Positions 1-50,413 of a stretch of DNA of 64,000 nt are shown one piece after another. Source of the DNA: Patescibacteria group bacterium (GTDB taxonomy: Bacteria > Patescibacteriota > Patescibacteriia > UBA10025 > JAHIVO01); the NCBI GenBank assembly GCA_041666685.1, contig JBAYGJ010000001.1:31749-95748 (forward strand), in the 5' to 3' direction. Numbering within the stretch: the first letter of the stretch is position 1; each line of letters opens with the position of its first letter. The translations under genes and the position numbers were made by a program. The notes below the pieces were generated by a model that was not told the DNA's origin, did no database searches, and saw nothing but the letters and a program-made list of their open reading frames with translations.

Positions 1-402
1 TTCTTTCACCGTCCCAACATTGAACGTCAGCGCTACCTGTTTCTGTTCAGCTGAACCACGTGAAGTAACTTTCGTACACCCATCCAGACTGAAATCACTA
101 GTTGATGCGGCGATATTTACATTCATATTGGAATTGGTATTTCCATTCACATTTGCATTAGTATTCGTGTTGGAATTCTGGTTTACGCTATTCGTATTGC
201 CATTTTCATTTGTATTGATACTGGAAAGTGTGGCGTTGTCGTTCGGTAGGGTCAGGGTCGGAGTCGGCTGTTTTGAAAATATCGAACGGCCAATCAAAAA
301 AACAACAAAAACACTGCCAGCGATAATCAATATCCTGGTCCAGTTAAACGCCGTCTTATCCCCGCGGGGGCGAAAACGCTGGTATTGTTGGTAATTTGCC
401 AT
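1..402 (-). CDS. Partial CDS (N-terminal 134 aa; gene continues past window start): membrane-anchored protein with N/T-rich low-complexity linker
   Basis: The reverse complement of 1-402 reads MANYQQYQRFRPRGDKTAFNWTRILIIAGSVFVVFLIG...NTNSNMNVN...ALTFNVGTVKE with no stop to position 1. AAGGAG lies 9 nt upstream of the ATG. There is one TM helix. The plus-strand ORF 20..394 is its antisense shadow. Confidence 0.5.
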   Translation of the reverse strand, partial: MANYQQYQRFRPRGDKTAFNWTRILIIAGSVFVVFLIGRSIFSKQPTPTLTLPNDNATLSSINTNENGNTNSVNQNSNTNTNANVNGNTNSNMNVNIAASTSDFSLDGCTKVTSRGSAEQKQVALTFNVGTVKE

Positions 403-454
403 ATCATGGTTCTCCTTCTACCCCTATTATAACGGCTTATTGGCAAATAATAAA

Positions 455-484
455 GGGATAAGAAAATGCCGGACTTTCCGGCAT
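455..484 (-). terminator. Rho-independent terminator for the minus-strand B12/RNR transcription unit
   Basis: Perfect 8-bp stem ATGCCGGA/TCCGGCAT with a 3-nt loop (466-484). On the minus strand it is followed by UUUUCUUAU. It lies between the stop of the 500..1042 gene and the start of the next gene. Confidence 0.55.
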
Positions 485-499
485 GTATGTTGTTTTTTA

Positions 500-1042
500 T
501 TATATTGCCCGCTCGACCACCTTTGTTGATACCGGCCTCTTGGACATTGCATACTTCACAAGTTCATACACCCCGAAAAATACCGAAACATAGAAAATGT
601 CACCAAAAAACGTATTCCGGTAAAACGGCACAGCCATCACATAACTCTGTACCAAACCAGCCAATGTTTTGCTGTACAGCGGCGTAAATGCCCATACGGC
701 AAAATTCGTTATGGCATAAAACAATACCGATCCTGCGATCGTGCCTGCCGCGATCCGTCCGACATGCTTGTTTCGACGCACCCACCAACCGATCATGCCA
801 AAAAAGAAGTAACTTCCCCAGGTGAATAATACAAGGTTATGCCAACCGATGATCGAATCGCTCACGACCATGGCAACAAGGGGTATGACCACGCCCCAGC
901 GGGAGCGGACGTACGTTCCGCAAAACAGGGCCAGTGCGCCCATCGGGATAAAATTATACGGGTGCGGAACCAGGCGCATGAGTACCGTCAGCATCACAAA
1001 AACCAATACAGCCAGACTGACAAACCACCGATTGTTTTTCAT
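500..1042 (-). CDS. Multi-pass membrane protein, probable ECF-type vitamin transporter S-component (CbrT-like cobalamin uptake)
   Basis: 180 aa with about 5-6 hydrophobic helices. It sits immediately downstream of a DUF4430 gene (the known CbrT/DUF4430 pairing) and a cobalamin adenosyltransferase. The call comes from context and topology, not from a motif. Confidence 0.4.
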   Translation of the reverse strand: MKNNRWFVSLAVLVFVMLTVLMRLVPHPYNFIPMGALALFCGTYVRSRWGVVIPLVAMVVSDSIIGWHNLVLFTWGSYFFFGMIGWWVRRNKHVGRIAAGTIAGSVLFYAITNFAVWAFTPLYSKTLAGLVQSYVMAVPFYRNTFFGDIFYVSVFFGVYELVKYAMSKRPVSTKVVERAI

Positions 1043-1062
1043 ATATACTTTTTTATCTTTTA

Positions 1063-1572
1063 TTAAAACAGACTGGTTTGAAATTTAAATTCGATGGCAT
1101 CTCCGGGCTGGACAATCTGCCTGTCTACGGCCATGGTGGCTGCTTGGCCGTCGATATAAAACGACCAATACTTGTTATCCTGCCCACCCTTCAGATCCCC
1201 GATGGCATTGACCAGTGTACCCATCTCACCATAATCCTTTGTGTCCAATACCAAGCCGTATATCTGCGCCGCCTGCTTGAGCGCATCAAGCGCCGTACCG
1301 CCAGTCGGTACGCTCAAATCAACACTGACTGAATTACCGCTGCTGCGTGCGATGGTGACTTTTACTTTCACCACCTCAACTCCAGCCACCCGGCCGGCAA
1401 TCGCATTGTGATTACCAACGGCGACTTGGATGTTATTGGTATGGGAGTCCTGGATGGCGATTGCCCGATCAGTCGAATAACTTGAAATAGCCAAAGCAGT
1501 AAGCAATATGACGGCAAAACTTACGACTGCGCTGGCAAACCACCAATGGAACTCCTCCTTATTGTTTTTCAT
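1063..1572 (-). CDS. DUF4430 (transcobalamin-like) domain protein, membrane-anchored
   Basis: There is an N-terminal TM helix. The C-terminal domain carries the YWSFYIDG...GDAIEFKF signature typical of DUF4430 proteins, which are encoded next to cobalamin ECF transporters. Confidence 0.6.
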   Translation of the reverse strand: MKNNKEEFHWWFASAVVSFAVILLTALAISSYSTDRAIAIQDSHTNNIQVAVGNHNAIAGRVAGVEVVKVKVTIARSSGNSVSVDLSVPTGGTALDALKQAAQIYGLVLDTKDYGEMGTLVNAIGDLKGGQDNKYWSFYIDGQAATMAVDRQIVQPGDAIEFKFQTSLF

Positions 1573-1586
1573 AGTATGGCAATTAC

Positions 1587-2132
1587 TTAATAATCTATGG
1601 ACGGCCTGGCGAGTATTCCTTTGGTAAACGGATGCTTGACCATTTGTATATCCGAGACATAATCGGCCAATTGTATTATCTTAGCTGGTGCCTGCCGTCC
1701 TGTCAAAACCAATTCCACATGAGCCGGTTTTCCCTTGATCAAACTCATAACTGACTGTGCGGTTACTAGCCTCTCCTTAATTGCCACATGTATCTCGTCC
1801 AAAATGACAACACCATACCGACCGGATTGTACAGACCGTCTAGCCACTCGTAATGCGCGTTGGGCTGCCTGCTGATGAACACGTAACGGTTTCCGATCAC
1901 CTAATATTTTAACAAACCCCTCGCCGAGTGCCAGGATTTCGAGAAATGGTGCAAGTTTCTTTACGATATCAAGTTCGCCAGAACGCCACGGGCCCTTAAT
2001 GAACTGCACCATCAGCACTTTTTTTCGATAACTGATGGCGCGCAACGCCAAGCCAAGGGCGGCTGTGGTTTTCCCCTTGCCATTGCCCGTATAGACATGC
2101 ACCAAGCCTCTGTCTATCTTTTTAAATTTCAT
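1587..2132 (-). CDS. cobO: cob(I)yrinic acid a,c-diamide / cob(I)alamin adenosyltransferase (CobA/CobO/BtuR family)
   Basis: P-loop-like HVYTGNGKGKTTAALGLALRA. The size (181 aa) and sequence fit the CobA/BtuR family. It is adjacent to the AdoCbl-dependent RNR. Confidence 0.75.
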   Translation of the reverse strand: MKFKKIDRGLVHVYTGNGKGKTTAALGLALRAISYRKKVLMVQFIKGPWRSGELDIVKKLAPFLEILALGEGFVKILGDRKPLRVHQQAAQRALRVARRSVQSGRYGVVILDEIHVAIKERLVTAQSVMSLIKGKPAHVELVLTGRQAPAKIIQLADYVSDIQMVKHPFTKGILARPSIDY

Positions 2133-2147
2133 ATCATCTCAACTATA

Positions 2148-4448
2148 TTATCCGAGACTACAAGCAGAAAACCCGCATTTAGGACACACCGAGCATCCCT
2201 CTTTGATCTCCATGTTCGTCTTGCATTCTGGGCACGTTTCGATCACATGGCTTCGGCGGGCAGCGCTTGCGACCGGGACTTTGACCGACTCACTCGATGT
2301 TTTCACGGTCGGTATAGTTACTGCGCCACTGCGGAGGTCTTCATAATTATAGCTGAATGATTTTTTCGATTCCTTGTGCTTGACTGAGCCGATGTTCAGT
2401 ACCTGTACGTCACGCGATCGGTCCCGGTAAATAGTCACGCCTTTGCATCCTTGCCGGTAAGCCAGCATATACACCTCTTCAACATCCTCAACTTTTGCGT
2501 CATTCGGAAAATTAACCGTTTTGGAAACTGCATTATCAGTAAACTTTTGGAACACGGACTGCATTTTCAGATGCCACTCCGGTGTAATGTCATGGGAAAC
2601 CACAAACAGTCTCTGCCATTTGGCCGGCACTTCATCCATGCCCTGGACTCCGCCATGTTCGGCGATTTTCTTCATAAGTTCTTCAGTAAAAAATCCTTCA
2701 CGGCGGGCAATATATTCAAATAACGGGTTCACTTCAATGAGCTCATTATCATCCATGACATTGCGGATGTACGAGATGGCGAACAGCGGCTCAATTCCAG
2801 ACGAACATCCGGCGATGATGCTGATGGTGCCAGTCGGTGCGATGGTATTGGTCGTTGAATTACGCATCTTCGGCGCACCCGGTTTGTCGAAAATACTCCC
2901 TTCAAAATTCGGAAACTGTCCGCGGTCCTGCGCCAAATCCTGAGACATTATCTTTGATTCATCGGCAATAAATTTCATTATTTTCTCGCCTAATTCCACC
3001 GCTTCCCGGCTGTCATACGGTACGCCCAGCATGATCAATACATCGGCCCATCCCATCAGGCCAAGGCCAATCTTCCTGTTGTCATGCACCATATTGGTAA
3101 TCTGCGGCAGCGGATAGTGGCTCATATCAATGACATTATCCAGAAAATGAATGGCCGTGCGTATGGTCGTGCGCATCTTGTCCCAATCAATCTCCACAGT
3201 TTCACCGACTGAAAAATCACCTTTGACCATCTTGGCCAAATTCAATGAACCGAGATTGCATGCCTCAAATGGCAGTAATGGCTGCTCGCCACATGGATTC
3301 GTGGCTTCCATTTCGCCGACTTTGGGCGTGGGATTATCGTGGTTAATCCGGTCGATAAAAACAATGCCCGGATCCCCATTTTTCCAGGCCAACGTGACAA
3401 TCAGGTCAAATACCTTGCGTGCATTCAACCGGTCCACGACCGTCTTGTCCTTGGGGTTCAACAGGTCGTAGTCAGTGTTCTGTTCGACGGCTTTCATAAA
3501 ATCTTCAGTCACGGCTACGGAAATGTTAAAATTATTCAAACGGTCATTATTCTCCTTGGCGGTAATGAATTCTAAAATATCCGGATGGTCGACCCGCAAA
3601 ATACCCATATTCGCCCCTCGACGGGTGCCACCCTGTTTAATGGTCTCAGTCGCCGCATCAAACACGGTCATGAACGATACCGGTCCTGAGGCCACGCCTT
3701 TCGTTGACATGACGCGGTCGTTTTTTGGGCGGAGCCGCGAAAACGAAAATCCGGTTCCACCGCCTGTTTTATGCACCAAAGCGGTCCATTTCACCGCATC
3801 AAAAATCTCCTCCATGGAATCACCGACCGGCAACACGAAACAGGCCGCCAGCTGCTGAAGTTCCTTGCCCGCATTCATCAATGTCGGGGAATTCGGGACA
3901 AACTCCAGCCGAGAAAGGACCTGATAAAATTCATCCTCAGTTTTTACCAAATCAATTTTCTGGTTCAAAAGCGAATCATACCGGGCGTCAGCTTGGGCGA
4001 TATTGGCGGCTACGCGGCGGAACATCTGAGGCGGTGTTTCAATGACCTTGCCGTTTGGATCCTTGCGCAGATACCGCTTGGAGAGCACGCGCAATGAATT
4101 CACAGACAGATTCGTATCCAGTTCAGGTAGGCCCAAATACGATCCCTTGGCGGCGCGGATCTTCTGGTGCTCTTTTCGATATAAAATATAAGCTTTCGCT
4201 AATTGGATTTGTTTTTCCTTGATCAGGACTTCTTCAACAATATCCTGAATCTGCTCGACTGTCGGGACCGTTGTGCTGTCGTACTTTTTCTCGAGGACGC
4301 CGACCACCTTTTTGCATAGCTTCTCGGCCAGCTTCTGGTCCTCCTGCTGGATGGATACCGTCGCTTTGTAAATTGCGTTTGTGATCTTTTCCAAGTCAAA
4401 CTCCACGACGACGCCCGAACGTTTACGTATCTTGTTTATTTTTACCAT
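2148..4448 (-). CDS. nrdJ: Ribonucleoside-diphosphate/triphosphate reductase class II (adenosylcobalamin-dependent), with N-terminal ATP-cone and C-terminal Zn ribbon
   Basis: 766 aa. It has an N-terminal ATP-cone (VVEFDLEKITNAIYKA). The catalytic core is class II RNR-like (NPCGEQPL..., GLMGWADVL). The C-terminus is CPECKTN...CSVCPKCG. Confidence 0.85.
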   Translation of the reverse strand: MVKINKIRKRSGVVVEFDLEKITNAIYKATVSIQQEDQKLAEKLCKKVVGVLEKKYDSTTVPTVEQIQDIVEEVLIKEKQIQLAKAYILYRKEHQKIRAAKGSYLGLPELDTNLSVNSLRVLSKRYLRKDPNGKVIETPPQMFRRVAANIAQADARYDSLLNQKIDLVKTEDEFYQVLSRLEFVPNSPTLMNAGKELQQLAACFVLPVGDSMEEIFDAVKWTALVHKTGGGTGFSFSRLRPKNDRVMSTKGVASGPVSFMTVFDAATETIKQGGTRRGANMGILRVDHPDILEFITAKENNDRLNNFNISVAVTEDFMKAVEQNTDYDLLNPKDKTVVDRLNARKVFDLIVTLAWKNGDPGIVFIDRINHDNPTPKVGEMEATNPCGEQPLLPFEACNLGSLNLAKMVKGDFSVGETVEIDWDKMRTTIRTAIHFLDNVIDMSHYPLPQITNMVHDNRKIGLGLMGWADVLIMLGVPYDSREAVELGEKIMKFIADESKIMSQDLAQDRGQFPNFEGSIFDKPGAPKMRNSTTNTIAPTGTISIIAGCSSGIEPLFAISYIRNVMDDNELIEVNPLFEYIARREGFFTEELMKKIAEHGGVQGMDEVPAKWQRLFVVSHDITPEWHLKMQSVFQKFTDNAVSKTVNFPNDAKVEDVEEVYMLAYRQGCKGVTIYRDRSRDVQVLNIGSVKHKESKKSFSYNYEDLRSGAVTIPTVKTSSESVKVPVASAARRSHVIETCPECKTNMEIKEGCSVCPKCGFSACSLG

Positions 4449-4466
4449 ACTATTATCAATTAGTAT

Positions 4467-4937
4467 TTATTTTCTTTTCGTTCTCCGATTGCTGATCAGC
4501 TTACGGAGCTCATGTTGGAATGTTTGCGCGTCCTTGAACGACCGATAGACCGAGGCGAAACGGATATACGCAACCTCATCCTTCTTTTTCAGGTGCTTCA
4601 TGATTATTTCACCGATCTGGCTGCTTTTGATCTCCTCTCGGCCGACCATCTGGATGTCTCGTTCGACTTGGCTTACTAGCCGCTTGAATTCGTCCTGGGT
4701 AATAGGACGCTTTTCGAATGATTTTTTTAAACCGGACTCTAGCTTGTCTTTGGCATACGGCTCCCGATGCCCATCACGCTTGATGACGGTAACATTCAGT
4801 ATTTCCGCTTCCTCATAGGTAGAGAAACGAAAGCCGCAGCGCAGGCACCGGCGGCGTCGCCGAATGGCCATGGCGTCATTAACCAGGCGGGAATCACTTA
4901 CTTTAGTGTCCGCATAATGGCAAGCTGGGCATTTCAT
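4467..4937 (-). CDS. nrdR: Transcriptional repressor NrdR
   Basis: MKCPACHYADTKVSDSRLV...CLRCGFRFSTYE Zn ribbon followed by an ATP-cone. It is 156 aa and sits directly upstream of nrdJ. Confidence 0.9.
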   Translation of the reverse strand: MKCPACHYADTKVSDSRLVNDAMAIRRRRRCLRCGFRFSTYEEAEILNVTVIKRDGHREPYAKDKLESGLKKSFEKRPITQDEFKRLVSQVERDIQMVGREEIKSSQIGEIIMKHLKKKDEVAYIRFASVYRSFKDAQTFQHELRKLISNRRTKRK

Positions 4938-5159
4938 AATATCAACATGTAGTACGTCCGATTAACAGTATACTACTAAATATGGATACGGTCAAATAGG
5001 CTAAATTAGCTGAAAATGCTAATTCTGTGGATAACTAGCATCATATTTCAATACATGAGACTCCTGGCGCAATTTTTCGCAGCCAAAACATGGCCGCGGA
5101 AAACAATTTTGGTTGTACTTTTTGTGTTACTGCACGATACCAGCGAAATGTATCGCCTA

Positions 5160-6359
5160 CTACATCATTTTCTTGCGGATAAAAGCCGGTATCTCCAAAT
5201 CATCCTCTTCTGAAATTGTCGGTTCTTTCTTTGGCAACGACGGAACCGGCGGTGGAGTATATGCGGGTCTTTGTTCCGGCACTGATTTTATTTTATTGGA
5301 CGAAAATATCGTTTTTGGCTCCTCACGCTCCACCATGCCGCCAAAACTGATCGGTTTTATCTTTTTCAGGGACTTTTGCTTCCCCCCAAATCCAGTGGCA
5401 ATGACGGTAATCTTTATTTGGTCCTTCATCGCTTCATCGATCACAGCACCAAATATGACACGGGCATTCGGGTCGCCGGACGCAGTAATGATCCGTGCCG
5501 CCTCATTGACTTCATACATACCCAGATCAGGTCCGCCGGTTACAGTGAACAAGATACCCTTAGCCCCTTCTATGGACAACTCAAGCAGCGGACTGTCAAC
5601 TGCGGCTTTGGCCGCGTCGATGGCCCGATTTTCACCGGACCCCTGCCCGATTCCCATCAATGCCGAGCCGGCGCTTTCCATGATGGAACGCACATCGGCA
5701 AAATCAACGTTGATTAGTCCGGGAACGGTAATCAGGTCTGAAATCCCCTGCACACCCTGGCGTAACACTTCATCAACTGTCCCAAACGCATCAAGCAATG
5801 AGGTCTTTTTATCGATGATCTGAAGAATGCGGTCATTCGGGATGGTAATGATCGTATCGACTTTTTCCGTCAATTCCGCCAAGCCAGCTTCAGCGATGCT
5901 TTTCCGCTGTGCCCCCTCAAATGAGAACGGTTTTGTCACGACAGCGACCGTCAAAGCCCCGACATCCTTGGCAATATCCGCAATCAGAGGCGAGGCGCCA
6001 GTCCCCGTTCCGCCGCCCATGCCGCATGTGATGAAAATCATATCCGAACCTTTCAGCAGGTCATGAATCCCGTCCTGGTCCTCCTCTGCAGCCTTCCTCC
6101 CGATCTCAGAATCCATGCCAGCCCCCAAACCGCGCGTCGTGGTCTTGCCGATATGGAGCTTATGGGGGGCTTTTGAATGGTGCAGGGCCTGCGCATCAGT
6201 ATTGATGGCAATAAACTCGACACCACGTATCTTGGTGCTGATCATGCGGTCTATCGCCGCACCGCCGGAACCGCCTACGCCAACGACTTTTATCTTGGCA
6301 AACGTCTCAATGTCAGGTTTAATTTCCATAGTATTCCGATTAGAATTGTAATTTTTCAT
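5160..6359 (-). CDS. ftsZ: Cell division GTPase FtsZ
   Basis: [13 protein letters not shown] and the GGGTGTG tubulin signature. GGGAGGGGG lies 8 nt upstream of the ATG. Confidence 0.95.
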
Positions 6360-6380
6360 TATATATACCCCCTCCCAACG

Positions 6381-7634
6381 TTACGGCATTAATGATTTAA
6401 ACCATTGCTTCATTTTTGACGTCACTTCCTTGGCAGATGAGAAATTCGGCAATTTAAACCCGCGGCCACTGCTGTCTTTGTCCGATAAACCGGCGCCCCA
6501 ATAGAGGAGCCCGATCGCCGTGGAGTAATTTACGTCATTAACTTTATCAACGGCCGTCGAAGCCAAATCCAGTGGATATCCGAGCGAGGCAGGCAGTTTG
6601 AATTCCCGTTTCGCCACCTCGATCAATCCGGGCAGCTTGGCGCCACCGCCTGTAATAATAACTCCGGCCGGCAGTAATCCGGCCCGATCGATTTTCTGCA
6701 ACTCCTTATCGGCCATTTTGAAAATTTCCTCAGTCCGGGCTTCGATAATCTCCGCAATATGGCGCCGTGATACCACGCCTTCTTCGCGTGAATCAATTTC
6801 TCCGAGGTTAATCTCCTCACGTTTATTTATTTCGTCGGGGACAGCGTTGCCATATTCAATTTTAATCTTTTCAGCCAAATCTATCGATGTTCGCAAACCG
6901 ATGGCGATGTCATTCGTCACATGACTAGACCCGACCGGCAAAATTGCCGTATGCAACACATCGCCTTCCTCAAAAACCAGCAGACTGGTTGTTGATCCGC
7001 CGATATTCAACAGCGCTACACCCAAATCACGCTGCTTTTTTGTCAGGACGGACTCGGCAGAGGCCAAAACACCGAGGACAAGATCATTGATATCGATACC
7101 AGTACGGTAAATGCATTTAGTAATGTTTTTTACTTGAGAAGACAGCCCCTGGATTATCTGGGCGTCAACCTCTAGCCGAATTCCGGTCATACCGACCGGG
7201 TCCTTGATCCCTTTTTGGTTATCAACCGTAAAGCTCCTCGGGATGACATGGAGAATCTCATAATTTGGCGGTGTCGCAACTGCCTGCGCCGCTTCAATTA
7301 CCCGCTCAACATCCTCCTCACGGATCTCACCGTCGGATTTTGATACCGCGATGACCCCATGGCTTTCCTGGGCAGTAATATGGCTGCCATTGATGCCCAC
7401 ATAGGCGTGTTCAACTGGAATACCGGTCATACGCTCAACCTTTTCAAGGGTCGCCGAGATGGAGGAGACGGCGTCTTCGATACTGGTAATCGCACCTTTG
7501 CTCACCCCTTCAGCCGGATGCTCTGCAGCACCCAACACATGAATTTTATTGTCATGCGGATTGACCTGCCCGACCACGATACGGATGGTAGTAGAGCCAA
7601 TATCAAGACCAGTTATGATTTCTTCTTTAGCCAT
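6381..7634 (-). CDS. ftsA: Cell division protein FtsA
   Basis: Actin-like ATPase (GLDIGSTTIRIVVG). The ATG at 7634 (MAKEEIITGLDIG) matches canonical FtsA N-termini. The ORF track gives a longer GTG-start version reaching 7664. Confidence 0.88.
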   Translation of the reverse strand: MAKEEIITGLDIGSTTIRIVVGQVNPHDNKIHVLGAAEHPAEGVSKGAITSIEDAVSSISATLEKVERMTGIPVEHAYVGINGSHITAQESHGVIAVSKSDGEIREEDVERVIEAAQAVATPPNYEILHVIPRSFTVDNQKGIKDPVGMTGIRLEVDAQIIQGLSSQVKNITKCIYRTGIDINDLVLGVLASAESVLTKKQRDLGVALLNIGGSTTSLLVFEEGDVLHTAILPVGSSHVTNDIAIGLRTSIDLAEKIKIEYGNAVPDEINKREEINLGEIDSREEGVVSRRHIAEIIEARTEEIFKMADKELQKIDRAGLLPAGVIITGGGAKLPGLIEVAKREFKLPASLGYPLDLASTAVDKVNDVNYSTAIGLLYWGAGLSDKDSSGRGFKLPNFSSAKEVTSKMKQWFKSLMP

Positions 7635-7795
7635 ATATTTTTTTAACGGAATCCCTATGCGCACTCCAGTTAACCGTCTGTCTGAGCAGCCGTAGAGTGC
7701 GGTTCATTTACCCATATTATAAAGGATTTATATGTAATATGCAAAAGGTCCATTAACACGCGTATTTTTACCAATTTTGGCCTGGTTCTGGAACA

Positions 7796-8164
7796 CTACC
7801 AGGAAACAAAATAAGGCACAAAAATAAGCAAACCGATAACAACCGCCCCGATCGAGGCTACCAGAACTGCGGCAGCCATCACATCCTTGATCACCTCAAC
7901 ATACATATGTATCCGGGGGCTGAGGATGTCGGCGACTTTCTCAAAAATCGTATTGATCAGTTCCAAAGCCAGAACAAACATCATAATCATAAGCAAAATT
8001 ATCGCCTGCCAAAGCGCTACCTCAAAATAGATCATGAAAATGATGACGATCAGGCTGGCCAGGAGGTGCAGGCGGATGTTCTGTTCATTTTTCAGGGCAT
8101 ACCAAAAGCCACGGCCGGCATAACGGAAGCTTTTAATGAGTTTGCGAAAATCAATTAGCGGCAT
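7796..8164 (-). CDS. dgkA: Diacylglycerol kinase / undecaprenol kinase (DgkA family)
   Basis: 122 aa with 3 TM helices. ELINTIFEKVAD and VIKDVMAAAVL align with E. coli DgkA ELLNSAIE / AKDMGSAAVL. Confidence 0.8.
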   Translation of the reverse strand: MPLIDFRKLIKSFRYAGRGFWYALKNEQNIRLHLLASLIVIIFMIYFEVALWQAIILLMIMMFVLALELINTIFEKVADILSPRIHMYVEVIKDVMAAAVLVASIGAVVIGLLIFVPYFVSW

Positions 8165-8183
8165 ACGGAAAAATTACAGTAAA

Positions 8184-8627
8184 TTAGTTGTTCGACAGAT
8201 ACGCGCGCAAAATGCGTTTTTCTAGGCGTTGCATTTTTACCGCAGCCGCATTTCTTATATGGTCATGACCAATCAAATGGAGCCACCCATGAATAAGCAA
8301 AATAATAACTTCTTCCCTGAATGAATGGAGTAATCGTTTTGCCTGCCGCCTCGTATATGGTACCGCAATGACGATTTCACCTACATACCCGGTGGAAATC
8401 ATTTCGGCTTTCTTCACGTCCAATTCTGAAAACGAAAGTACATCAGTGGGACGATCAATGTGCCGGTACTGGCGGTTTAAGCGACGACTGACCGCATCGC
8501 TGACAAAAGCGACCGACACCTCAGCATGGCGATACTGAGGATCCTCTTTGGCGGCCACTGCCATGACACGTTTCACCAGCTTCTCATGGACGCCCGACGC
8601 ATAAAGTTGGTTAACCAGGACCCGCAT
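8184..8627 (-). CDS. ybeY: rRNA maturation endoribonuclease YbeY
   Basis: TDVLSF and the HGWLHLIGHDH metal-binding motif. The start overlaps the upstream stop (ATGA). Confidence 0.85.
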   Translation of the reverse strand: MRVLVNQLYASGVHEKLVKRVMAVAAKEDPQYRHAEVSVAFVSDAVSRRLNRQYRHIDRPTDVLSFSELDVKKAEMISTGYVGEIVIAVPYTRRQAKRLLHSFREEVIILLIHGWLHLIGHDHIRNAAAVKMQRLEKRILRAYLSNN

Positions 8628-9784
8628 TAGAGCCGATTGGTTGCGGAATTCAAATTGCTGTTTGTATTTGATGTATTGGTGTTATGGTTCGCGTTGATAT
8701 TGGTATTGGTATTTGTGTTCGTATTCCGATTTGTATTTATGTTGGTTGCCGTATTGGTATTCACCGGCACTACCCCGATCCTGAAACTGCGGTACATCGC
8801 CTGAAATACCGTTTTGTAATTTGCCTGAGCCAGAATATTAATGTTGTAATTAATAAGGTACACTCTGCTCCCGCTGACGAAATATGCCGTGAGTCCATCA
8901 ACGCTCAAAACTCCGGACAAAGTTTTATCCCAATTTGTAACACTCATAATTTTTGACGAGTCGATACCAGGCGACTGGGTGAGGTACCAGTCACGTGCGG
9001 ATAGCCCGGCGGGGTTCTCCTGCACGCTCACCTCGACAAACTCGCCGCTGGCCGTGAACATTTTCCCGCGGGTATTCTGTGGATCGTCTGATAACGCCCA
9101 ACTCGCAGGGTACAGTGTCGAATACCCGTATACACTGTCATAATACGTTTTTATGGCCGCATTTGCCTCGATTTTACCCGTCCCAGCCGGATTGTATCCC
9201 CCGCCGACCTCCAGGCCATCAGAATAACTGTCCCCATCCGTATCGGCTTTATTCGGGTTGGTGCTAAAAATCGTTTCCTCTACGTCAGTCAAACCGTCAC
9301 TGTCGCTGTCCTGGCTGGACACCACTGGAGTTATATTGGTATTTACCGACGTATTTGTGTTATTCACATTAAAAACTGGGAATAAATTCGTATTGCCGGA
9401 CATGTTCGCATTACTGTTCCCGTTGGTGTTTTTATTCGTATTGCCGGACATGTTCGCATTACTGTTCCCGTTGGTGTTTTTATTCGTATTCGAATTAGCA
9501 TTCTGGTTTCCGGCGATATTGCTGTTTGCGTTTTGGTTCGTGACAACGATATTTTGATTAGCATTCGTATTAGCTGATGGACCGAATTTTTTATAGGCAA
9601 AATAACCGGCCACCCCCAGAATCAGTACCACCACAATAATGATCAGCCACAAAAACAATCGGGAGCCGCCACCCGACGAACCGTGATCGTCAATGTGAAA
9701 CTTGGCCGGCATCGTGTACATCTTTACCGGTTTATTGGACATTTGGGAATTGGCAGTTGGAAGTGGCGGTGTTTCAAATGGCAT
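8627..9784 (-). CDS. Single-pass membrane-anchored surface protein with N/T-rich low-complexity regions, thrombospondin-type-3-like Ca-binding repeats and a C-terminal globular domain
   Basis: TM helix LFLWLIIIVVVLILGVAGYFAY. There are (N-x-N) repeats including a perfect 16-aa duplication. DSDSDGLTDVEE and DTDGDSYSDGLE are DxDxDG Ca-binding motifs. There is a GGGYNPAGTGK motif, and the NTNTN tail runs to the C-terminus. Confidence 0.5.
   Translation of the reverse strand: MPFETPPLPTANSQMSNKPVKMYTMPAKFHIDDHGSSGGGSRLFLWLIIIVVVLILGVAGYFAYKKFGPSANTNANQNIVVTNQNANSNIAGNQNANSNTNKNTNGNSNANMSGNTNKNTNGNSNANMSGNTNLFPVFNVNNTNTSVNTNITPVVSSQDSDSDGLTDVEETIFSTNPNKADTDGDSYSDGLEVGGGYNPAGTGKIEANAAIKTYYDSVYGYSTLYPASWALSDDPQNTRGKMFTASGEFVEVSVQENPAGLSARDWYLTQSPGIDSSKIMSVTNWDKTLSGVLSVDGLTAYFVSGSRVYLINYNINILAQANYKTVFQAMYRSFRIGVVPVNTNTATNINTNRNTNTNTNTNINANHNTNTSNTNSNLNSATNRL
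9385..9480. repeat. Perfect 2 x 48-bp tandem repeat inside the 8627..9784 CDS, encoding NKNTNGNSNANMSGNT twice
   Basis: The unit attcgtattgccggacatgttcgcattactgttcccgttggtgttttt occurs twice back-to-back with no mismatch. A degenerate third unit follows. Confidence 0.8.
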
Positions 9785-9796: not shown

Positions 9797-10438
9797 TTAT
9801 TGGTTCGTATTAGATAGCGTGTTTGTTAAATCATACAATTTCCCGGGGCCGACAGGACTGTACCCATTCTGGACTTCGACACCGTCATCCTTGGCGTCTC
9901 CGTCCGTATCTTTTTTCAACGGATCTGATTTATATACCTTTACTTCTTCCCGGTCAAAAAGTCCGTCGCCGTCAGAGTCAGCTTTCTGCACATCAGTACT
10001 GAGAGATTTTTCCTCTGTATCAGCTAGACCGTCGCCGTCAGTATCAATCAAAGCAGAATTTACCGCGGAAATATTTACCACAACCGGTACGGCATCACTA
10101 TTAACCCCCTGAACCGAATTAGTATTAGTCGTTACCGTATTCGTAGTTTCTTTTGTAAACAATCCGCTCCGCCATGCAGCCATCGCGCCAGCCGCACACA
10201 GTACGACTAACAGCGCTACCCCGGCAATCATGAACCGGCGATTTCCAAAAAACATGCCCCCCGAAGTGCCCGAAACCGCGCCATCCTCCCGCGCGACTGA
10301 TAGGGGCACCACTGGCGATTTAAGTACCGCCGGCCGAACAGCCCGCTTCTTACCCGACGCCGTAACTGCCTTTTTAGCTGCAGCACGGTCTGTTTCCTCA
10401 AAAATATCTTCAACATTTTGTTTCTGGTTTTTCGCCAT
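9797..10438 (-). CDS. Single-pass membrane-anchored surface protein with thrombospondin-type-3-like Ca-binding repeats (paralogous architecture to the 8627..9784 gene)
   Basis: Likely start MAKNQKQ. The ORF track extends it to 10483, overlapping the upstream gene. The TM helix is FMIAGVALLVVLCAAGAMAAW. DTDGDGLADTEE, DSDGDGLFDREE and DTDGDAKDDGVE are DxDxDG motifs. The protein ends with GYSPVGPGK. Confidence 0.5.
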   Translation of the reverse strand: MAKNQKQNVEDIFEETDRAAAKKAVTASGKKRAVRPAVLKSPVVPLSVAREDGAVSGTSGGMFFGNRRFMIAGVALLVVLCAAGAMAAWRSGLFTKETTNTVTTNTNSVQGVNSDAVPVVVNISAVNSALIDTDGDGLADTEEKSLSTDVQKADSDGDGLFDREEVKVYKSDPLKKDTDGDAKDDGVEVQNGYSPVGPGKLYDLTNTLSNTNQ

Positions 10439-10445
10439 ACAACTA

Positions 10446-12056
10446 TTATAATGCTGGTGAAGAGGTATCCTGCGCGATGTCAATCTGACACGAACAGTTC
10501 TGGCCAGTCACTGTCGTCACATTAATCGTTGTAATTGCGCTCGTGGTCGAAGACGTCGCATCATACGCAACTGCATACAACCCTTTCGGCGTTGTCGAAA
10601 TGATATCCGTACATACTTCATGCGTTCCTGTGGGGCAATCAAGTGCCGACAATTCAACTGCCCGGGCGGTTTTCACGAACGGTAGCCGCAGGCCAGACTT
10701 CACCATGGCATATGACTTAATCGGGCTTTGAAGGAAAGTCACCTGACTGACATTGAGAGTACCGGTGAATGTTACAGCTGGCGTTGAGGCGACCGTAGAA
10801 GCGAGAGGTCCGCCCCCACCGCTGCTAAATAGATCAACTTTTGTAAGCGCAACATCGTCGGTGGCAGAGATGCTGTAACTCAATGTGCCGGTGCTGGTAT
10901 AGTATGCGCCATTTGTGGGCTGGTTGATGGTCACCGTCGGGGCGCTTGGTGGTACAGTGACGTTGACTGTCCGTGTCGCCGTAGTAGTCAGTGATGCGCC
11001 ATTGTAGGCGATTGCTTTCAAGGTATGACTACCATTGGTGAGCGACCCCACGTTCAACACCCACGTATAATTATGGCTTCCTAACGGCTGGTCATAAATC
11101 TGGGTATCGCGCGGCATTGATTCCAAATCAAGGTAAAATTCTACTTTTATGATGGCGCTTTCGGGATCCGTCGCATTTGCCACCACAGAATAACTGGCCG
11201 TCGACAGCACAGTCCCATCAGTCGCCGGAGCAGTTATGGAAACCTCCGGTGCAGTTGTATCAGGCGTGGTATTGCTCACCGTAACAGTCACTGCCGTAGA
11301 GGTAGTCGAATTCCCTGCCGCATCCCTGGCGACCGCAGTGAGTGCGTGTGACCCAGATGCGGTTGCGGTCGTATCCCAGCTAACAGAATATGGCGCTGAA
11401 GCATCTTCCGCTCCAAGGTTTAAATTATCGATCTTGAATTGCACTCCGCTCACACCGACAGTGTCAGCCGCAGTTGCATTTATTGAAGTAGTCCCAGTGA
11501 CGCTTGCGCCGTTAGTCGGTACGGTGATTGAAACGGTAGGGGCAGTGGTATCGGAAGTAGTCGTATTGATATTAAAGTTGGCATTACTATTGCCCGTCCC
11601 GACTGTAATAGTCGCGGCCGCAGTTGATACAGTCGGATGACCCAGGGCATCTGCCAGTTGAATATCCACCAGATAGAGCCCATTCCCATTAGCTCCGGTA
11701 TTCCACGTGTTGGCATATACATCATCGCCCGCGGTACCGTCGCTGTGCTTACCGTCATCATACAGCTGTATGATGGCGATAGTCCCTCCGTTATCGCGCC
11801 GGATATTTGCCGTGGCCACACTGATGCCCGAAACGTCAGTGGTTTTTACTGAAATGACCACTGACCCCCCCAGTGCCACTGACGCAGGAGTGGCTGTCGT
11901 GCTTTCCAATGTCGGACCGGCTGTGGCGCCTGCGGTATTGCTGTATACTTCCCCGCTGGGCGTATTGGCCGCGCGGACAAATGTGATCCCCGCGACAGCA
12001 AATATTCCCGCCGCAAAAAGAATTATTAATAATTGTGAAATCTTTTTCATAATCAT
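10446..12056 (-). CDS. Secreted cell-surface protein with multiple bacterial Ig-like (Big-type) domains
   Basis: Signal peptide MIMKKISQLLIILFAAGIFAVAGITFVRA. It has repeated Ig-like modules (VSITVPTNGASVTGTTSINATAADTVGVSGVQFKIDN...HALTAVARDAAGNSTTS). This is the same domain type as the repeats in the giant protein upstream. Confidence 0.6.
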   Translation of the reverse strand: MIMKKISQLLIILFAAGIFAVAGITFVRAANTPSGEVYSNTAGATAGPTLESTTATPASVALGGSVVISVKTTDVSGISVATANIRRDNGGTIAIIQLYDDGKHSDGTAGDDVYANTWNTGANGNGLYLVDIQLADALGHPTVSTAAATITVGTGNSNANFNINTTTSDTTAPTVSITVPTNGASVTGTTSINATAADTVGVSGVQFKIDNLNLGAEDASAPYSVSWDTTATASGSHALTAVARDAAGNSTTSTAVTVTVSNTTPDTTAPEVSITAPATDGTVLSTASYSVVANATDPESAIIKVEFYLDLESMPRDTQIYDQPLGSHNYTWVLNVGSLTNGSHTLKAIAYNGASLTTTATRTVNVTVPPSAPTVTINQPTNGAYYTSTGTLSYSISATDDVALTKVDLFSSGGGGPLASTVASTPAVTFTGTLNVSQVTFLQSPIKSYAMVKSGLRLPFVKTARAVELSALDCPTGTHEVCTDIISTTPKGLYAVAYDATSSTTSAITTINVTTVTGQNCSCQIDIAQDTSSPAL

Positions 12057-12089: not shown

Positions 12090-15000
12090 CTACCTACAGG
12101 CATTCGCATCTTGGCATGGATCGGCGCCCCTGGTAATTGCTTCAACAATACGCTGAATGGCAGGAATCGGTCCTGTCGTCCCCCATGATGAGATATACCT
12201 ATGAATTCCGATCGGCAAACTCGCACCAGCATATAACGTCGTACCATCTGCATATAATGAATACACAGCCTGTTTTCCGGCAATTGTGGTAGATAGCCAC
12301 GTATTCCCGTTATCATTTGAACGGTATACGATGCCATTTGGAGTAGACCCGACAAATATCGCAGTCCCAAATCTTGCAATACTTAAATATGAATTTGCCC
12401 CACCGCTTGGATTACGGTCAGTCCACGTTGCCCCATTATTATTAGTGTAATGGACTAGGCCTAACGCTCCACTGGTCACAACATACAGAGTGCTATTTGC
12501 TTCATTATAATACATATCATTAATGGCCGATTCCGTAGCGGCAAACCTCCCTATATTCGTCCAGGTTACCCCGTCATCAGTTGATCGGAAAACTGCAGGC
12601 CCAGTTGCCGAGCCGGACGTACCGGCATACAAAGCACTCGGCGTGGCAATTAAACTCTCGATCCGCGGATCCGTCACAGAACCCGTCAAAGTCCATGTAT
12701 TTCCCGCACTGAGCGTTGAATACACCGCGCCTCCACCGCCTGCCGCAAAAACTTTTCCGCTCTTATAAGCCAATGGCGATATGGATATATTAAAAGCCGC
12801 GCTCCTGCTCCAGGACTCAGTTCCGCCGTCGCACGTCCTCCAAACATAACCCCGAATTGGACTGTATGCGTTGCCTGATACATACAGACAGGCACCGACA
12901 GGCTGGATATCTTCCAAATTTGTCTGTCCAGCGGGCTGATTTGTGGTCAGTACCCACGAAATTGCATTATTTATGGATTTATACACGACCGCTGCCATGG
13001 AAGTCGTGTTATTTCTGGCAGTAGCGAATAACGCTGTCGGACCGCTGTACGGAGGATTGACAGTGAGCCGAAGTGTTTGTGTATCTGATAGGCCGGTGGA
13101 GTCCGTCGAGGTAAGCGTGATATTATACGTCCCAGCCGTGGTCGGTGTGCCGGTAATACGGCTGCCGCTGAAACTGAGGCCGGCTGGTAGTGGTGCCGCA
13201 GTGAATGTGATCGGCGGCGTGCCACCCGAAGTGATAATCTGGTAGGAATAATAATCACCGACAGACGCGATGCCAGTCAACATACTGATAATCAAAGGGA
13301 CATTGGCCGAGCATTCCAAAGGACATAAATCATTGGACTCTGGCGGAGCGTCGCAGGTCCCGTTGGCATTGCAGATCGGCCGTCCGGGGATATTCTCCAG
13401 CTCAGAGGCATTCATCTGGACATCTCGTGCCTGGATATCCACCCACATCACCGTTTCCTGGTTTGATGTCCATGTCCCGCTGTATCGTCCGGATATATTA
13501 TCGCCGGAAATCCTGCCGAGCGGGATGGAAATGCGCGGAACTAAATCTGTTTCATCGGGATTTTGGACGAGTGCGACTGGAGGTGAGCTCGTATCGTCGA
13601 CGCCGTCAGTGTCGCTGATGTCGGCATAAAAAGTGAACACTGTCCCGACTGCGCCTGTTTCTGGAGTCATAAAGGCATTTTCAATAGTCGGGCCGCCGGG
13701 ACCGCGGACATTATAATTACGTTCAATACTGGTACTGCGGTTACCTCGCGCATCAAGCGCGTCCACCTGGAACGAATGCCAGCCGTCTGAAATCGCCCGG
13801 GTATCCACGACCCACTCTGTCGGCTGGCCTGCCAGGGCTGTCTTACGCAACACATGATCCAGGTAAAAATTTACCCGATTTATTCCATAATTATCCGTCG
13901 CCGTCACCCGGAGGGTAATGGACTGGTCAACAGAAGTCCCCTCATTGGGCGTCGGCGGAGCATCAAACACGACAGTCGGTGCCTGATCGTCGTCCTGAGC
14001 TACATCCACCGGTAAAAATATCGTCGAAGTGGTCACATTACTGGCATCATCAAAGGCATAGGTCGAAACCTGGTGTCCTGCACAGGTCAATCCCGGACTT
14101 AACAGCTGGCATTCGCTGGTCTCATTACATTGGGTCCCGCGCCCATTTGTGACCACGCATCGATCGCCCGACTGCGGACAATCACTGTCGCTGATACACG
14201 CCTGGCCACCGAGTTGGCACTGGCTGGCGCAGACCCCCCTGGACAGGCCGGCCGTACTCCAATTCCAGTCCCAGACGAATGCACACACGCCCGGCGCGCA
14301 GGTAGAATTGTCCGTACATAATGCGTTTGGCGCTACACTACAGTTGCCTTGGGCCCGACGGATACCGTCGCTTTTAAATAGCCCATCCACGTAAAACTTC
14401 ACCTGGTTGACCTGCTTATTGTCCGACGCCACTACCGGCACAGCCACTGTACCGCTCCGCAGACAGATCAGATTATCCGCTGGGGCATAACTGTCTTGGC
14501 ACACCGCGGCAGTATTCGATTGGTCACAGCTAACGTCAAAATTACAACGGGCACCATCAGGGCAGGTATGAACATAATCACATGCCACATCCGGATCGGC
14601 CGGATCTTCTTTCTGACACAACCCCTCGCCGCACCGGCCTTCAATATTATTGAAACTTACCTGTGGAGGAGTGGGATCAAGGTTATCGACATTTATCAGG
14701 ATGGACGTGGTCCCTGTGCGGCCGCCGCTGTCCCTGGCGATCGCAGAAATGGTGTATTGGCCATTGGCGACACGGGTGGAATCCCACGGCGGCGAATACG
14801 AACAACTCAGGGTCGTGCTGGCATTGCCGGAGCACGAATAGCTGTCCCCATTTGAGATATTAATCGTCACGTTATCGACCTGCCGGTTATCCGTAGCCAG
14901 GGCATTGATCTGCACTCCATAGCTGGTCGACGAACGGACACGCAATATCCTGTTACCGCTGTCTGTGATATACAAATAATTTCCGGATATGGCCACATCT

Positions 15001-18000
15001 TCCGGAGCAACAATATTTTCCAGATCCTGCGGTCCGGCATTATTTCCGAAAATAAAGATTTTCCTGGAAAGGTTGGTATCAAGAGCGGAAATGACATTCC
15101 CGGCGTTTTCCGTCACATACACCGTCGATCCGTCAACATGTATCCCGTCAGGGACGTTTAATTGGTTGGGACCATTGCCGTTTATGCCGGTGCCAAAAAC
15201 GGCGCCAGGCACCAGATTTAGGTTGGAGTCCAATTTGAACACCTGGCCGGTGTTCCGTTTGCTGACATACACGTTACCGGCGCTGTCTGTATCGATTCCG
15301 TTCACGCCGTCACTCCCAAAATCATAGTGATGCTCGATGGTATTTGTCACCGGATCGAAAATAACGACTGTCTGGAAATAAATAATTGCTGCAATTTTCC
15401 CGTCCGGGCGTCCGACGGAATGAGTTACGCCAAACTGCGGCAACGCCCCGCCGGTTTCATCCACAGCCCCGAGGTTATAGACCGCCTTTGGCGCCTGGAG
15501 AGGCGTCATGCTCGGATCAAACCTCAAAACCCGCCGGGTGCCCACAGGTGCCGGAGTATACGTTACCAACAGGTCGCCGTTTGAGTGATCCAGGCCGACA
15601 TGCCATGCTATCTGTGAAGAGGGCGATAATCCCAACGCATCAAAATCAAAAGTTCCTAAATCCACGCAACTATCCAGATTGCTGTTGCACCGGCGGAGAT
15701 GCGCCGGATCTTCCCAATAGGTCACATAATAAATATATCCATTGTTAGAAGCCTCAAGGCTATGAATGCCCGCAGTATCCACAGCCTTGTCCGGCAAAAA
15801 CGATATGGTACGGTTGGAAACGGTATCCCCGTCTTTTGGCGATGTAATGGTGACAAACGGATTGGTTGTATCCGGCTGGCCGCTATTGTCGATGCGAACC
15901 GCATATTCCTTGTCCGTCTGATTATCCGCATTATCAAACGCCCGGACCCGGACCGTATGGGCGCCGTCGGAGAACCTAGTTGTATTGAAATCCCAGCTCC
16001 AGATGGCGCTGTCCGTATCAGTAAACGTACGGATACCGTCAACATAATACTCTACCCGGTTTACGCCTGACCCAACGTCTGTCACCGTCGCATTCAGGAC
16101 ACGGGTTCCGCTCACCGCGGTTACGGCATTCTCAACCAGCAAATCGACATCCCCGATGACCGGGCCGACATGGTCAGCAGCTGAACCAGTGACATTATAT
16201 TCATAGTTAAAACACGGACACTGCGCTTCAGTCATACCGACACATTTATCTACTACCGGATCGGCGACCAGATACCACTCCCAATTACCCTCTGCATTAA
16301 CCAATAAATGAACATTTTCCAAATGAGCAAGCAGACTGGCCCGGCTGCCCGTGGCATTGCCCAAATATTGGTAGACAAACGAACCGCCCGGACACTGGTA
16401 TGTTTTTAGCGTTTCATTCCAGCAGGTATTCTGGTCATAGCCCGTGCCGCACAATGTCGGCGGATCCTCCACGATAAACTTATCGTACGGATCGCCCGGC
16501 AAATTGCCGCCGAGTGCCGCCCCAAGCGTCTCCTGCCAGGACGGCCATTTGGACGTGGAAAGCATCTTGACGTATGATCCGCCCTCAAGTTTCGGGAAGT
16601 AACCATTATCGGTGCGGTAGATCATCAGTTTCTCGTAGATGGACGACAGGTCATTGATCCGCCGCATATCGCGCTGGACCTGCTCCTTTTCGGTCTGTGT
16701 GATGTTGATGCTGAATTCCCAATTCTCAATCATCCGGTTGTAGATGCTGACTGTTTCGTCAGACGCGCCCTCGTTATATGAAATCAAATATATATTCGGA
16801 TACAGCCGGCCGAGATTGCCTGGATTCCAGGCGGCGACATACACGCTCCGTCCGGCCCGTACTGCGGCGTACCCATCCACTGTCAGATCCTGGGGTTGTG
16901 GCGCAGCCGGTCCAAACTGGCCATAGTACCAATCGTGGGGCGACTGGTTGCTTTCGTTCTCGTAGACCCGGATGCCGATAGCGTCGTCCGTATCCGCACG
17001 GGTGAAGAAAAATTCCCTGATCAGCTCGTTTTTCTTGTTGCCGAATTGATAGCTCCCCGCTTTGACAATCACGTCGCCAGTCGGCGCCAGTGATGGCAAG
17101 GCGCCGGGATCACGGCAGTACGAGATAGAAAAATTCGTGACAGTATCAGTATATGGGAACGTGTCTGCCGGCACAGAGAAGGGGTTCGGCCACGGGTGTT
17201 CGCACACATTGACCGTCACTCGAGCAGAAGATGTTTTTGTACCGGTGAAGAATTCCGGATCAAATGAGGCATTGACCGTCGTCCGGCCGTTCTTGTTCTG
17301 GGCCGTCAGCCATCTGGAAAAATCCCCCAATGGAGTCAGTTGGGCGATCGACGTATCGCCAATTGAAAAAGTAGCCGTCGAATTGACGGGATTATTATTT
17401 TTATCATATGGTATCGCCTCCACTATATGTTGGTTGCCATTAACAGCACCCAAGTCGTCACTGCAATCTGTCGGTGCGGTACACGTAAATATATCAGGTG
17501 GGTTATAAAATGGGGTATCAGCATTTACGAAAGTCCAGATAACGTGGTCAATCTGACAGATGGACGCCAACGGATCCACATCCCATTCAAATAACCGCCA
17601 GTTGTCCACAATGTTTGTCCAGGTGATGCCCCGCTCACTTTTTATAATATCGGTGCGCAAATTAATATCTATCGCCGTGCCAACATGCAGGGCCACAGTC
17701 GGCGAAACAATGAATCCGTTGATGATTTTCTTAACTGTAAACGCAACTGGCGCAAGGTTTTCGGTCAGGGTGACAGAGTCACCAACGACGACCGAAGTCA
17801 TGTCAATATCCTGGTCAAACTTGATGATAAACGAGTTATTCAAACAGATGAGCGGCGAGTCCGGCGGAACCACGTCAGGCTTGATGGAGACAAACTGCGG
17901 CCGGGCATAACAACAAGTACTCTTGCCGCACGCGATCGTCCCGGTCCCGTCCTCATCGCACTGGGCATCGCCGGTCGCGGTATCCTCATAATCACACCCG

Positions 18001-50405: not shown

Positions 50406-50413
50406 ATAAGTCT

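Follow-up and report, generated by a model that had tools for sequence, protein, structure and literature searches.

Can a member of the candidate phyla radiation (CPR), with its tiny genome, hold in one operon the genes for capture, import and activation of vitamin B12 as well as the gene for an enzyme that depends on this vitamin and makes the building blocks of DNA? This question is raised by a cluster of five genes on a contig from a Patescibacteria (CPR) metagenome-assembled genome (MAG), of which a stretch of 64,000 nt was analysed. This whole stretch is referred to as the window, and relatives of the locus carry labels of the type L004. The cluster consists of nrdR, of nrdJ for a class II ribonucleotide reductase (RNR), of a gene for a CobA/CobO-type cobalamin adenosyltransferase, and of two genes for proteins with the domains DUF4430 and DUF6580. 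A preliminary description of this DNA had read it as a self-contained module in which corrinoid scavenging and adenosylation feed the RNR under the control of NrdR. We consider it likely, with a probability of roughly 75% that applies to the proposed mechanism as a whole, that the cluster is an operon of this kind, and that repression by NrdR couples the acquisition of B12 to its main use in this organism, deoxyribonucleotide synthesis. The preliminary description was largely right as a whole; that the module is self-contained is unproven.

Gene order, spacing and protein families

All five genes were confirmed as open reading frames (ORFs) which are arranged head to tail on the minus strand (Table 1). 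In the order of transcription they are separated by 18 nt (nrdR/nrdJ, as had been described), 15 nt, 14 nt (cobO/DUF4430) and 20 nt, and no terminator was found in any of these gaps. The operon starts at a sigma-70-like promoter, in which two NrdR boxes are located (4940-4988), and ends with a hairpin terminator, which also had been described and which lies 15 nt past the stop codon of the DUF6580 gene. The hairpin reads ATGCCGGA-AAG-TCCGGCAT at 484..466, is followed by TTTTCTTAT, and has a folding energy of -14.8 kcal/mol (z = -4.6 compared to shuffled sequences). The gaps of 14-20 nt are too short for a riboswitch or for a promoter/terminator pair, and it is therefore most likely that the five genes form one NrdR-controlled transcript. 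The locus was found to be identical in three public assemblies, and the gene order is repeated in many other species (synteny among DUF6580 loci). Because of this recurrence, the juxtaposition of the five genes is, as judged from comparative data, not due to chance.

The assignment of nrdR, of nrdJ with its ATP-cone, and of the adenosyltransferase gene was borne out by curated hidden Markov models (HMMs), all of which matched above their cut-off. NrdR contains both of its expected domains (PF22811, E 4e-19; PF03477, E 6.5e-23). NrdJ scores 1046.6 bits with NF006417 (cut-off 961) and 742 bits with TIGR02504 (cut-off 400), and it carries the RNR all-alpha and ten-stranded barrel domains, while the class I model TIGR02506 is reached only at its cut-off and with a far lower score. 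The ATP-cone comprises residues 6-95, and the Cys-rich tail (CPEC...CSVCPKC...C) is seen in the translation. From its family, NrdJ is predicted to be an AdoCbl (adenosylcobalamin)-dependent enzyme. Neither a gene for an NrdB/F or NrdG partner protein, among the annotated genes of the window, nor a second RNR within its 64 kb was found. The adenosyltransferase matches PF02572 nearly over its full length (E 8e-58, model positions 2-172 of 172), scores 171.9 bits with TIGR00708 (cut-off 167.75), and has a P-loop GNGKGKTT.

Assignment of the fourth protein to DUF4430 could also be confirmed (PF14478, E 4e-12, 46.8 bits with a gathering threshold of 23.8, residues 91-165). Its domain is preceded by one hydrophobic helix near the N-terminus (about residues 10-32), which is kept as an anchor among 29 homologues. 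A Lys-rich start followed by a single hydrophobic helix is present in all 28 aligned DUF4430 homologues that are linked to DUF6580. According to this predicted topology, the DUF4430 protein would be extracytoplasmic. In the cobalamin carriers of vertebrates, DUF4430 makes up the C-terminal domain (PMC4350170). The alpha/alpha-toroid alpha domain of full-length transcobalamin was not found in the protein from the window, which consists of anchor, linker and DUF4430 only. A comparison with Bacteroides BtuH as a further DUF4430 protein was dropped, since a review (PMC13616437) calls the fold of BtuH novel without mention of DUF4430.

Table 1. Position of operon features in the window (minus strand) and of internal riboswitches in related loci.
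Feature	Position	Strand	Evidence or remark
-35 hexamer TTGACC	4990..4995	-	promoter scan TTGACC-17-TATACT, 10/12 matches
NrdR box 1, TATCCATATTTAGTAG	4973..4988	-	occupies the -35/-10 spacer; position kept in relatives
-10 hexamer TATACT	4967..4972	-	TATACT or TATAAT in relatives
NrdR box 2, GTACTACATGTTGATA	4940..4955	-	33 nt downstream of box 1; ends 2 nt before the nrdR ATG
nrdR, 156 aa, Zn-ribbon and ATP-cone repressor of RNR genes	4467..4937	-	TIGR00244, 181.9 bits (cut-off 124.65)
nrdJ, 766 aa, class II RNR, N-terminal ATP-cone, Cys-rich C-terminal tail	2148..4448	-	curated HMMs
cobA/cobO/btuR-type ATP:cob(I)alamin adenosyltransferase, 181 aa	1587..2132	-	PF02572 and TIGR00708
Membrane-anchored DUF4430 protein, 169 aa, CbrS-like, proposed corrinoid binder	1063..1572	-	PF14478
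DUF6580 membrane protein, 180 aa, S-component fold, proposed corrinoid transporter	500..1042	-	PF20221, E 2e-47
Intrinsic terminator	457..484	-	8-bp stem with 5 G-C pairs, 3-nt loop, T-rich tail
Internal riboswitch in L007	5211-5428		
Internal riboswitch in L015	5148-5385		
Internal riboswitch in L041	5142-5345		
Internal riboswitch in L042	5151-5314		
Internal riboswitch in L062	5238-5375		
Internal riboswitch in L009	5287-5365		
Internal riboswitch in L081	3808-3880		

The promoter and its NrdR boxes

Comparison of the regions upstream of nrdR in related loci revealed two AT-rich boxes of 16 nt each. Their spacing is 32-33 nt in the relatives, which is about three helical turns, and their positions are kept across relatives with 71-76% NrdR sequence identity. 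In the relatives L004-L009, the corresponding position is occupied by a -35 hexamer TTGAC[ATC]. As single boxes are statistically unremarkable, tandem sites were scored, using a position weight matrix (PWM) that was built from relatives only and from which the window and its two closest relatives had been left out. The tandem at position 4988 is the best tandem site in the 64 kb (23.55 bits, compared to 10.9 bits for the next unrelated site), and its score was reached by none of 200 shuffles. For these reasons, the predicted control of the promoter by NrdR is well supported. Another motif, CYAYATKTWG, had been derived post hoc and is no more frequent than expected by chance, so that it was dropped.

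Rodionov and Gelfand reportedly described, in 2005, NrdR regulons with tandem NrdR boxes. The arrangement in the window resembles that of canonical NrdR regulons in having two palindrome-like, AT-rich boxes of 16 bp placed about three turns apart over an nrd promoter, and also in the linkage of nrdR to nrd genes. It differs in its local consensus, nnaCTATATnTAGTAg instead of the canonical acaCwAtATaTwGtgt, with which the boxes of the window agree at only 9 of the 16 positions. It also differs from known NrdR regulons in its reach, as the regulon would include genes for the uptake and adenosylation of B12.

Gene neighbourhoods link DUF6580 to B12

A scan of one genome per species resulted in 419 confirmed DUF6580 loci, the best 80 of which were examined. 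Most of these are from Patescibacteria, with a few from Actinomycetota, Bacteroidota and Ignavibacteria. Upstream of DUF6580 and on the same strand, a DUF4430 gene is found in 38 of the 80 loci (in 29 cases directly upstream), nrdJ in 25 and cobO in 21. Riboswitches of the cobalamin clan (RF00174, RF01482, RF01689) occur in 17 of the 49 loci that were scanned for them, in all cases upstream of DUF6580 and on its strand. The genes found between riboswitch and DUF6580 code for DUF4430 proteins, and a riboswitch also occurs in 3 of the 12 scanned loci that have no DUF4430 gene. In locus L018, DUF4430 is followed by one other gene, then by DUF6580, by a class II RNR resembling the monomeric RTPR type, and by cobO; because of this RTPR-like enzyme, DUF6580 associates with two types of class II RNR. 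Taken together, comparative genomics firmly ties DUF6580 to B12.

The RNR of L018, a Patescibacteria MAG, is a protein of 767 aa (6570-8873) with an ATP-cone, the RNR_Alpha domain of monomeric RTPR enzymes (PF17975), and a weak match to the barrel domain.

Proteins of approximately 450-850 aa are encoded under cobalamin riboswitches upstream of DUF6580 (for example L035:3214-5013, L026:3157-4971, L016:3375-4724, L040:4291-5922, L050:4111-5940). Among these, seven ORFs have a toroid of the alpha/alpha type known from prenyltransferases and squalene cyclases, and twelve ORFs have DUF4430; both domains within a single protein were seen only for L035:3214-5013. A protein with both toroid and DUF4430 has the complete two-domain layout that is known from transcobalamin and intrinsic factor of eukaryotes.

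DUF6580 has the fold of an S-component

The DUF6580 protein had been introduced as a CbrT-like S-component of an ECF (energy-coupling factor) transporter. When compared to Pfam and NCBIfam at E<=10, it matched no CbrT or ECF S-component family but only PF20221 (161.8 bits, gathering threshold 27). A CbrT fragment that served for comparison is recognized by PF12822 (ECF_trnsprt, E 3.6e-8), and one member of the DUF6580 family matches this model weakly (E 0.007). The AlphaFold2 (AF2) model of the protein, based on 36 homologues, has a pLDDT of 92.5 and shows six to seven helices. Among the best 50 of 149 Foldseek matches to PDB structures, all credible ones are ECF S-components (RibU, FolT, PanT, ThiT), with probabilities up to 1.0 and TM-scores of 0.5-0.65.

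At the sequence level, phmmer with the DUF6580 protein found nothing in the PDB, and the family profile (hmmsearch) had a sole match there, 6FNP chain A (E 0.012), which we take to be CbrT, since 6FNP is the ECF-CbrT entry. Alignment of the DUF6580 and CbrT homologues by hhalign resulted in E 7e-5 and a probability of 63% over 58 columns, which cover transmembrane helices TM1-TM3, and a loop motif R..P.PN..P is common to both. Given these fold and profile results, together with the lack of a family match, the term CbrT-like is appropriate for the fold and for a probable distant kinship, but is wrong with respect to the protein family. DUF6580 is a family other than the expected one, but its fold matches only S-components. 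The family is also large: at E<=1e-3, its members fall into 6,455 clusters of 50% identity.

Two well-characterized systems are available for comparison. In Lactobacillus delbrueckii, cbrT is part of a cluster nrdJ-cbrS-cbrT-pduO, and both cobalamin and cobinamide are substrates of the transporter ECF-CbrT (Santos et al. 2018, PMC5997447; PDB 6FNP). In locus L087, a CbrT homologue with 72% identity has directly upstream a gene for a DUF4430 (PF14478) lipoprotein of 132 aa, which bears a lipobox, and downstream a PduO-type adenosyltransferase gene. Because a DUF4430 gene here occupies the position of cbrS beside a CbrT homologue, cbrS of the Lactobacillus cluster is, as judged by position, a DUF4430 gene. 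On this comparison, the cluster from the window is a part-for-part, non-orthologous analogue of the Lactobacillus cluster. Both contain a class II RNR, a small extracytoplasmic DUF4430 protein that precedes a protein with S-component fold, and a cobalamin adenosyltransferase, and in both cases the host is presumed to be auxotrophic for B12. They differ in the family of the membrane protein (PF20221 in the window, PF12822 in L. delbrueckii, with only remote similarity to CbrT), in the type of the adenosyltransferase (CobA/CobO-type, PF02572, versus PduO-type, PF01923), and in the anchoring of the DUF4430 protein (transmembrane helix versus lipobox). Also, the operon in the window begins with nrdR and is under NrdR boxes.

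BtuM from Thiobacillus denitrificans is a solitary S-component which is encoded beside btuR, and for which facilitated diffusion and metabolic trapping have been proposed (Rempel et al. 2018, PMC6072759). The DUF6580 protein resembles BtuM in being a small protein with S-component fold and no ECF genes found nearby. It also resembles BtuM in having a BtuR/CobA-type adenosyltransferase alongside, both in the window and in 21 of the 80 loci, which suggests uptake driven by trapping. It does not have a counterpart of the invariant, cobalt-ligating Cys80 from loop 3 of BtuM (PMC6072759): none of the Cys is conserved among 36 DUF6580 sequences, in which the invariant residues of loop 3 are Asp62 and Gly66. 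BtuM is neither among the best 50 of the 149 Foldseek matches nor among the sequence matches. Furthermore, the hosts of BtuM are Gram-negative proteobacteria that have BtuB, whereas DUF6580 is paired with a DUF4430 binder.

Does DUF6580 depend on an ECF module?

The strongest competing explanation concerns the energization of transport. DUF6580 may be a conventional group II S-component, an equivalent of CbrT, that needs EcfA-EcfA'-EcfT encoded elsewhere, in which case the module would not be self-contained. We regard this as a serious possibility which nevertheless falls somewhat short of an even chance. It fits the S-component fold, the sole PDB match of the family profile (6FNP chain A) and the hhalign result. 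For group II S-components, a gene location apart from that of the ECF module is the rule, and for this reason the missing adjacency is uninformative. Complementation with CbrT alone, without the ECF module, gave no growth (PMC5997447).

Several results point in the opposite direction. EcfA, EcfA' and EcfT are absent from the 64-kb window, and no ECF A/T module was found within 6 kb of DUF6580 in the best 80 loci; an ABC-ATPase signature occurs within this distance in only two of the 80, on the opposite strand in both cases. In other S-components, an AxxxA motif contacts EcfT. Where CbrT has its invariant Ala pair, the two aligned TM1 columns of DUF6580 do not hold conserved small residues, although this comparison is only a weak clue to ECF dependence. 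In addition, the tight link to an adenosyltransferase fits the metabolic trapping described for BtuM-btuR, where the S-component is solitary (PMC6072759). The evidence leans towards a solitary, BtuM-like mode for DUF6580.

The likely substrate is a complete corrinoid

It may also be asked if DUF4430 and DUF6580 handle something other than a complete corrinoid, such as cobalt, a precursor of the lower ligand (alpha-ribazole or 5,6-dimethylbenzimidazole, DMB, for example), or a nucleoside. The adjacency to nrdJ and cobO would then reflect no more than a loose co-regulation related to B12 or nucleotides. S-component folds serve many different vitamins, the binding roles of the two proteins rest on prediction, and B12 riboswitches elsewhere also govern transporters for cobalt and for precursors. 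We nevertheless consider such a substrate improbable. Genes for the assembly of the corrin ring or the nucleotide loop were found neither in the window nor in the related loci, and the conserved partner is an adenosyltransferase, which requires a complete corrinoid. The domain type of DUF4430 is that of the C-terminal domain of vertebrate cobalamin carriers (PMC4350170), and pairing with DUF4430 also occurs for CbrT, a transporter of cobalamin and cobinamide (PMC5997447).

Control by NrdR or by riboswitches

The preliminary description had noted that a cobalamin riboswitch is missing and had considered this unusual for a B12 transporter operon. The absence is real, as Rfam models detected no such riboswitch anywhere in the window when applied at their gathering thresholds, nor in positions 1-6500 at E<=10. 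In this context it is less unusual than had been assumed, as 18 of the 25 relatives with a linked nrdJ, including the closest ones (L004, L005) and 16 others, are likewise devoid of it. In the remaining seven, the riboswitch is located between nrdJ/cobO and the uptake genes, and never before nrdR or nrdJ (Table 1). Such an internal riboswitch would divide the cluster into an NrdR-controlled and a B12-controlled part. Its location behind nrdJ makes sense, because a switch that is turned off by B12 and precedes nrdJ would silence the enzyme at the very time at which cofactor can be supplied. A riboswitch tends to be present in the more distant relatives. In L006, no degenerate riboswitch was found at E<=10 in the gap of 186 nt between cobO and DUF4430.

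In the window, where cobO abuts DUF4430 by 14 nt and a riboswitch is absent, uptake is expected to be tied to NrdR, that is to the dATP/ATP status. The DUF4430-DUF6580 pair of the relatives resembles the B12 operons that are run by riboswitches (btuFCD, btuB, cbrTUV). In contrast, the uptake genes of the window are joined by that 14-nt gap to the NrdR-controlled nrdJ-cobO.

It is unlikely that the genes are merely adjacent, with internal promoters driving cobO and the uptake genes and NrdR controlling only nrdR-nrdJ. In favour of this reading, minus-strand promoter-like hexamers do occur within cobO and DUF6580, and the uptake genes of seven relatives are regulated by a riboswitch of their own. 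Against it, such internal sites have about chance frequency, and the short gaps are devoid of terminators. Also, L004 and L005, which are the closest relatives, keep the compact layout without riboswitch, and cobO and DUF4430 are joined compactly in L061 and L077 as well.

Within the nrdR operon, none of the 14-20-nt leaders of the four genes that follow nrdR shows a recognizable Shine-Dalgarno sequence. Translation in the operon may thus be coupled, or it may be initiated without such a sequence. A strong Shine-Dalgarno sequence (GAAGGAGA at 402-418, minus strand) belongs to the polysaccharide-deacetylase gene, which is located past the terminator.

Proposed mechanism

We propose that one sigma-70-type promoter starts transcription and that its spacer and start region are covered by the two NrdR boxes. 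As expected from its family, NrdR would read dATP/ATP via its ATP-cone, and plentiful deoxynucleoside triphosphates (dNTPs) would turn off the whole unit. When the unit is expressed, the membrane-anchored DUF4430 protein would bind corrinoid outside the cell and pass it on to the DUF6580 protein. The latter may move it over the membrane by the toppling mechanism of the S-component fold, either working alone like BtuM or with an ECF energizer encoded elsewhere like CbrT. CobA/CobO would adenosylate the corrinoid, thereby also trapping it within the cell, and AdoCbl would be loaded onto NrdJ, whose own ATP-cone may add allosteric feedback by dATP. Since the lineage of the window is devoid of the riboswitch, B12 uptake would track the demand for nucleotides and not the level of B12. 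The route from corrinoid capture and import via adenosylation to a class II RNR, co-transcribed under NrdR, had been suggested in the preliminary description and is well supported by protein families, operon geometry, NrdR boxes and synteny.

Several observations weigh against this mechanism. A profile of 29 DUF4430 homologues matches 3KQ4 and 2PMV (E 0.003) and 4KKI (E 0.02), the beta domains of intrinsic factor and haptocorrin, only weakly, so that this likeness to the carriers appears marginal, and the AF2 model of the DUF4430 protein is poor (pLDDT 43, with 4 homologues in the alignment). The similarity of DUF6580 to CbrT likewise is weak, as seen from the E-value of 0.012 and the hhalign probability of 63% over 58 columns, and no energizer (EcfA, EcfA' or EcfT) was found in the 64-kb window. 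Nearly one third of the DUF6580 loci (24 of 80) have none of the four partner genes nearby (tblastn), and our literature search found no paper that names DUF6580. With respect to regulation, the single NrdR boxes are not significant according to the PWM (their ranks are 4 and 10, and maxima of comparable size also arise in shuffled sequences). Co-transcription is deduced from spacing and synteny, and promoter-like hexamers occur inside the genes (15, compared to 10.1 +/- 3.1 expected, which is close to chance).

Implications

The proposed mechanism would suggest a dependency of CPR bacteria on corrinoid for dNTP synthesis. Such a dependency might be put to use when these bacteria are cultivated, and it may account for some of what they require from other microbes. 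Our literature search found no paper that links CPR or Patescibacteria to nrdJ, B12 or ECF transporters. Across related CPR lineages, control by riboswitch and control by NrdR would alternate over the same uptake genes.

For a large share of the B12-dependent bacteria, the inner-membrane transporter for B12 is still unknown (PMC6072759). The comparative evidence assigns to DUF6580, with its thousands of members, and to its DUF4430 partner a specific and testable role in B12 uptake. A more far-reaching proposal, which we make only tentatively and which we would not call probable, is that DUF6580 constitutes a new large family of B12 transporters that use a DUF4430 binder and no ECF energizer and are pulled by adenosylation, and that in many Patescibacteria this pair has been joined to nrdJ under NrdR, which replaces the riboswitch. 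If this were true, DNA synthesis in these ultrasmall, host-dependent bacteria would hinge on corrinoids from their neighbours, and B12 import would be tuned to the demand for dNTPs and not to the level of B12.

Other features of the window and of related loci

The preliminary description had suggested looking for other corrinoid-dependent enzymes in the genome. In the window, a CarH-like regulator is encoded. The protein has 284 aa (62627-63481, plus strand) and consists of HTH_17/MerR, B12-binding_2 and B12-binding domains. The sequence is similar to CarH (5C8D, E 5e-11), 8JBS (E 2e-24) and the LitR-like 3WHP, and contains a Wx9EH motif (W-FAGHVSVFE-EH) as well as a DHHE lower-ligand region. 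It is a candidate for an AdoB12-dependent, light-sensing repressor, and it is likely to be a second user of AdoCbl in this CPR genome. The adenosylated cofactor would then probably serve at least two proteins. The gene is divergent from genes for a fasciclin-like protein (62147-62551) and a small membrane protein (61916-62128).

Two observations were made on the related loci. Many contigs (L005, L023, L027, L033, L037 and others) carry the title 'uncultured Gammaproteobacteria bacterium' (TPA), and their clusters share up to 93% identity with clusters from Patescibacteria MAGs; the Gammaproteobacteria labels on these contigs are probably wrong. In L038, an unclassified MAG, a group I intron (RF00028, 60.6 bits; 3132-3364, minus strand) is located among tRNA genes by the DUF6580 locus.

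Elsewhere in the window, a giant ORF of 3,442 aa (12090-22418, minus strand) has T4SS_pilin, Big_7 and He_PIG domains, and is followed by two more proteins with Big or TSP3 domains (10446-12056, 9797-10483). These are probably surface adhesins or pilus-associated proteins. A cluster related to oxidative stress and iron (about 50400-58550, minus strand) comprises a thymidine/pyrimidine-nucleoside phosphorylase, a ferredoxin, Fur, SufC, SufB, SufD, SufS, a NifU-like protein, an Fe/Mn superoxide dismutase, a ferritin and two DsbA-like thioredoxins.

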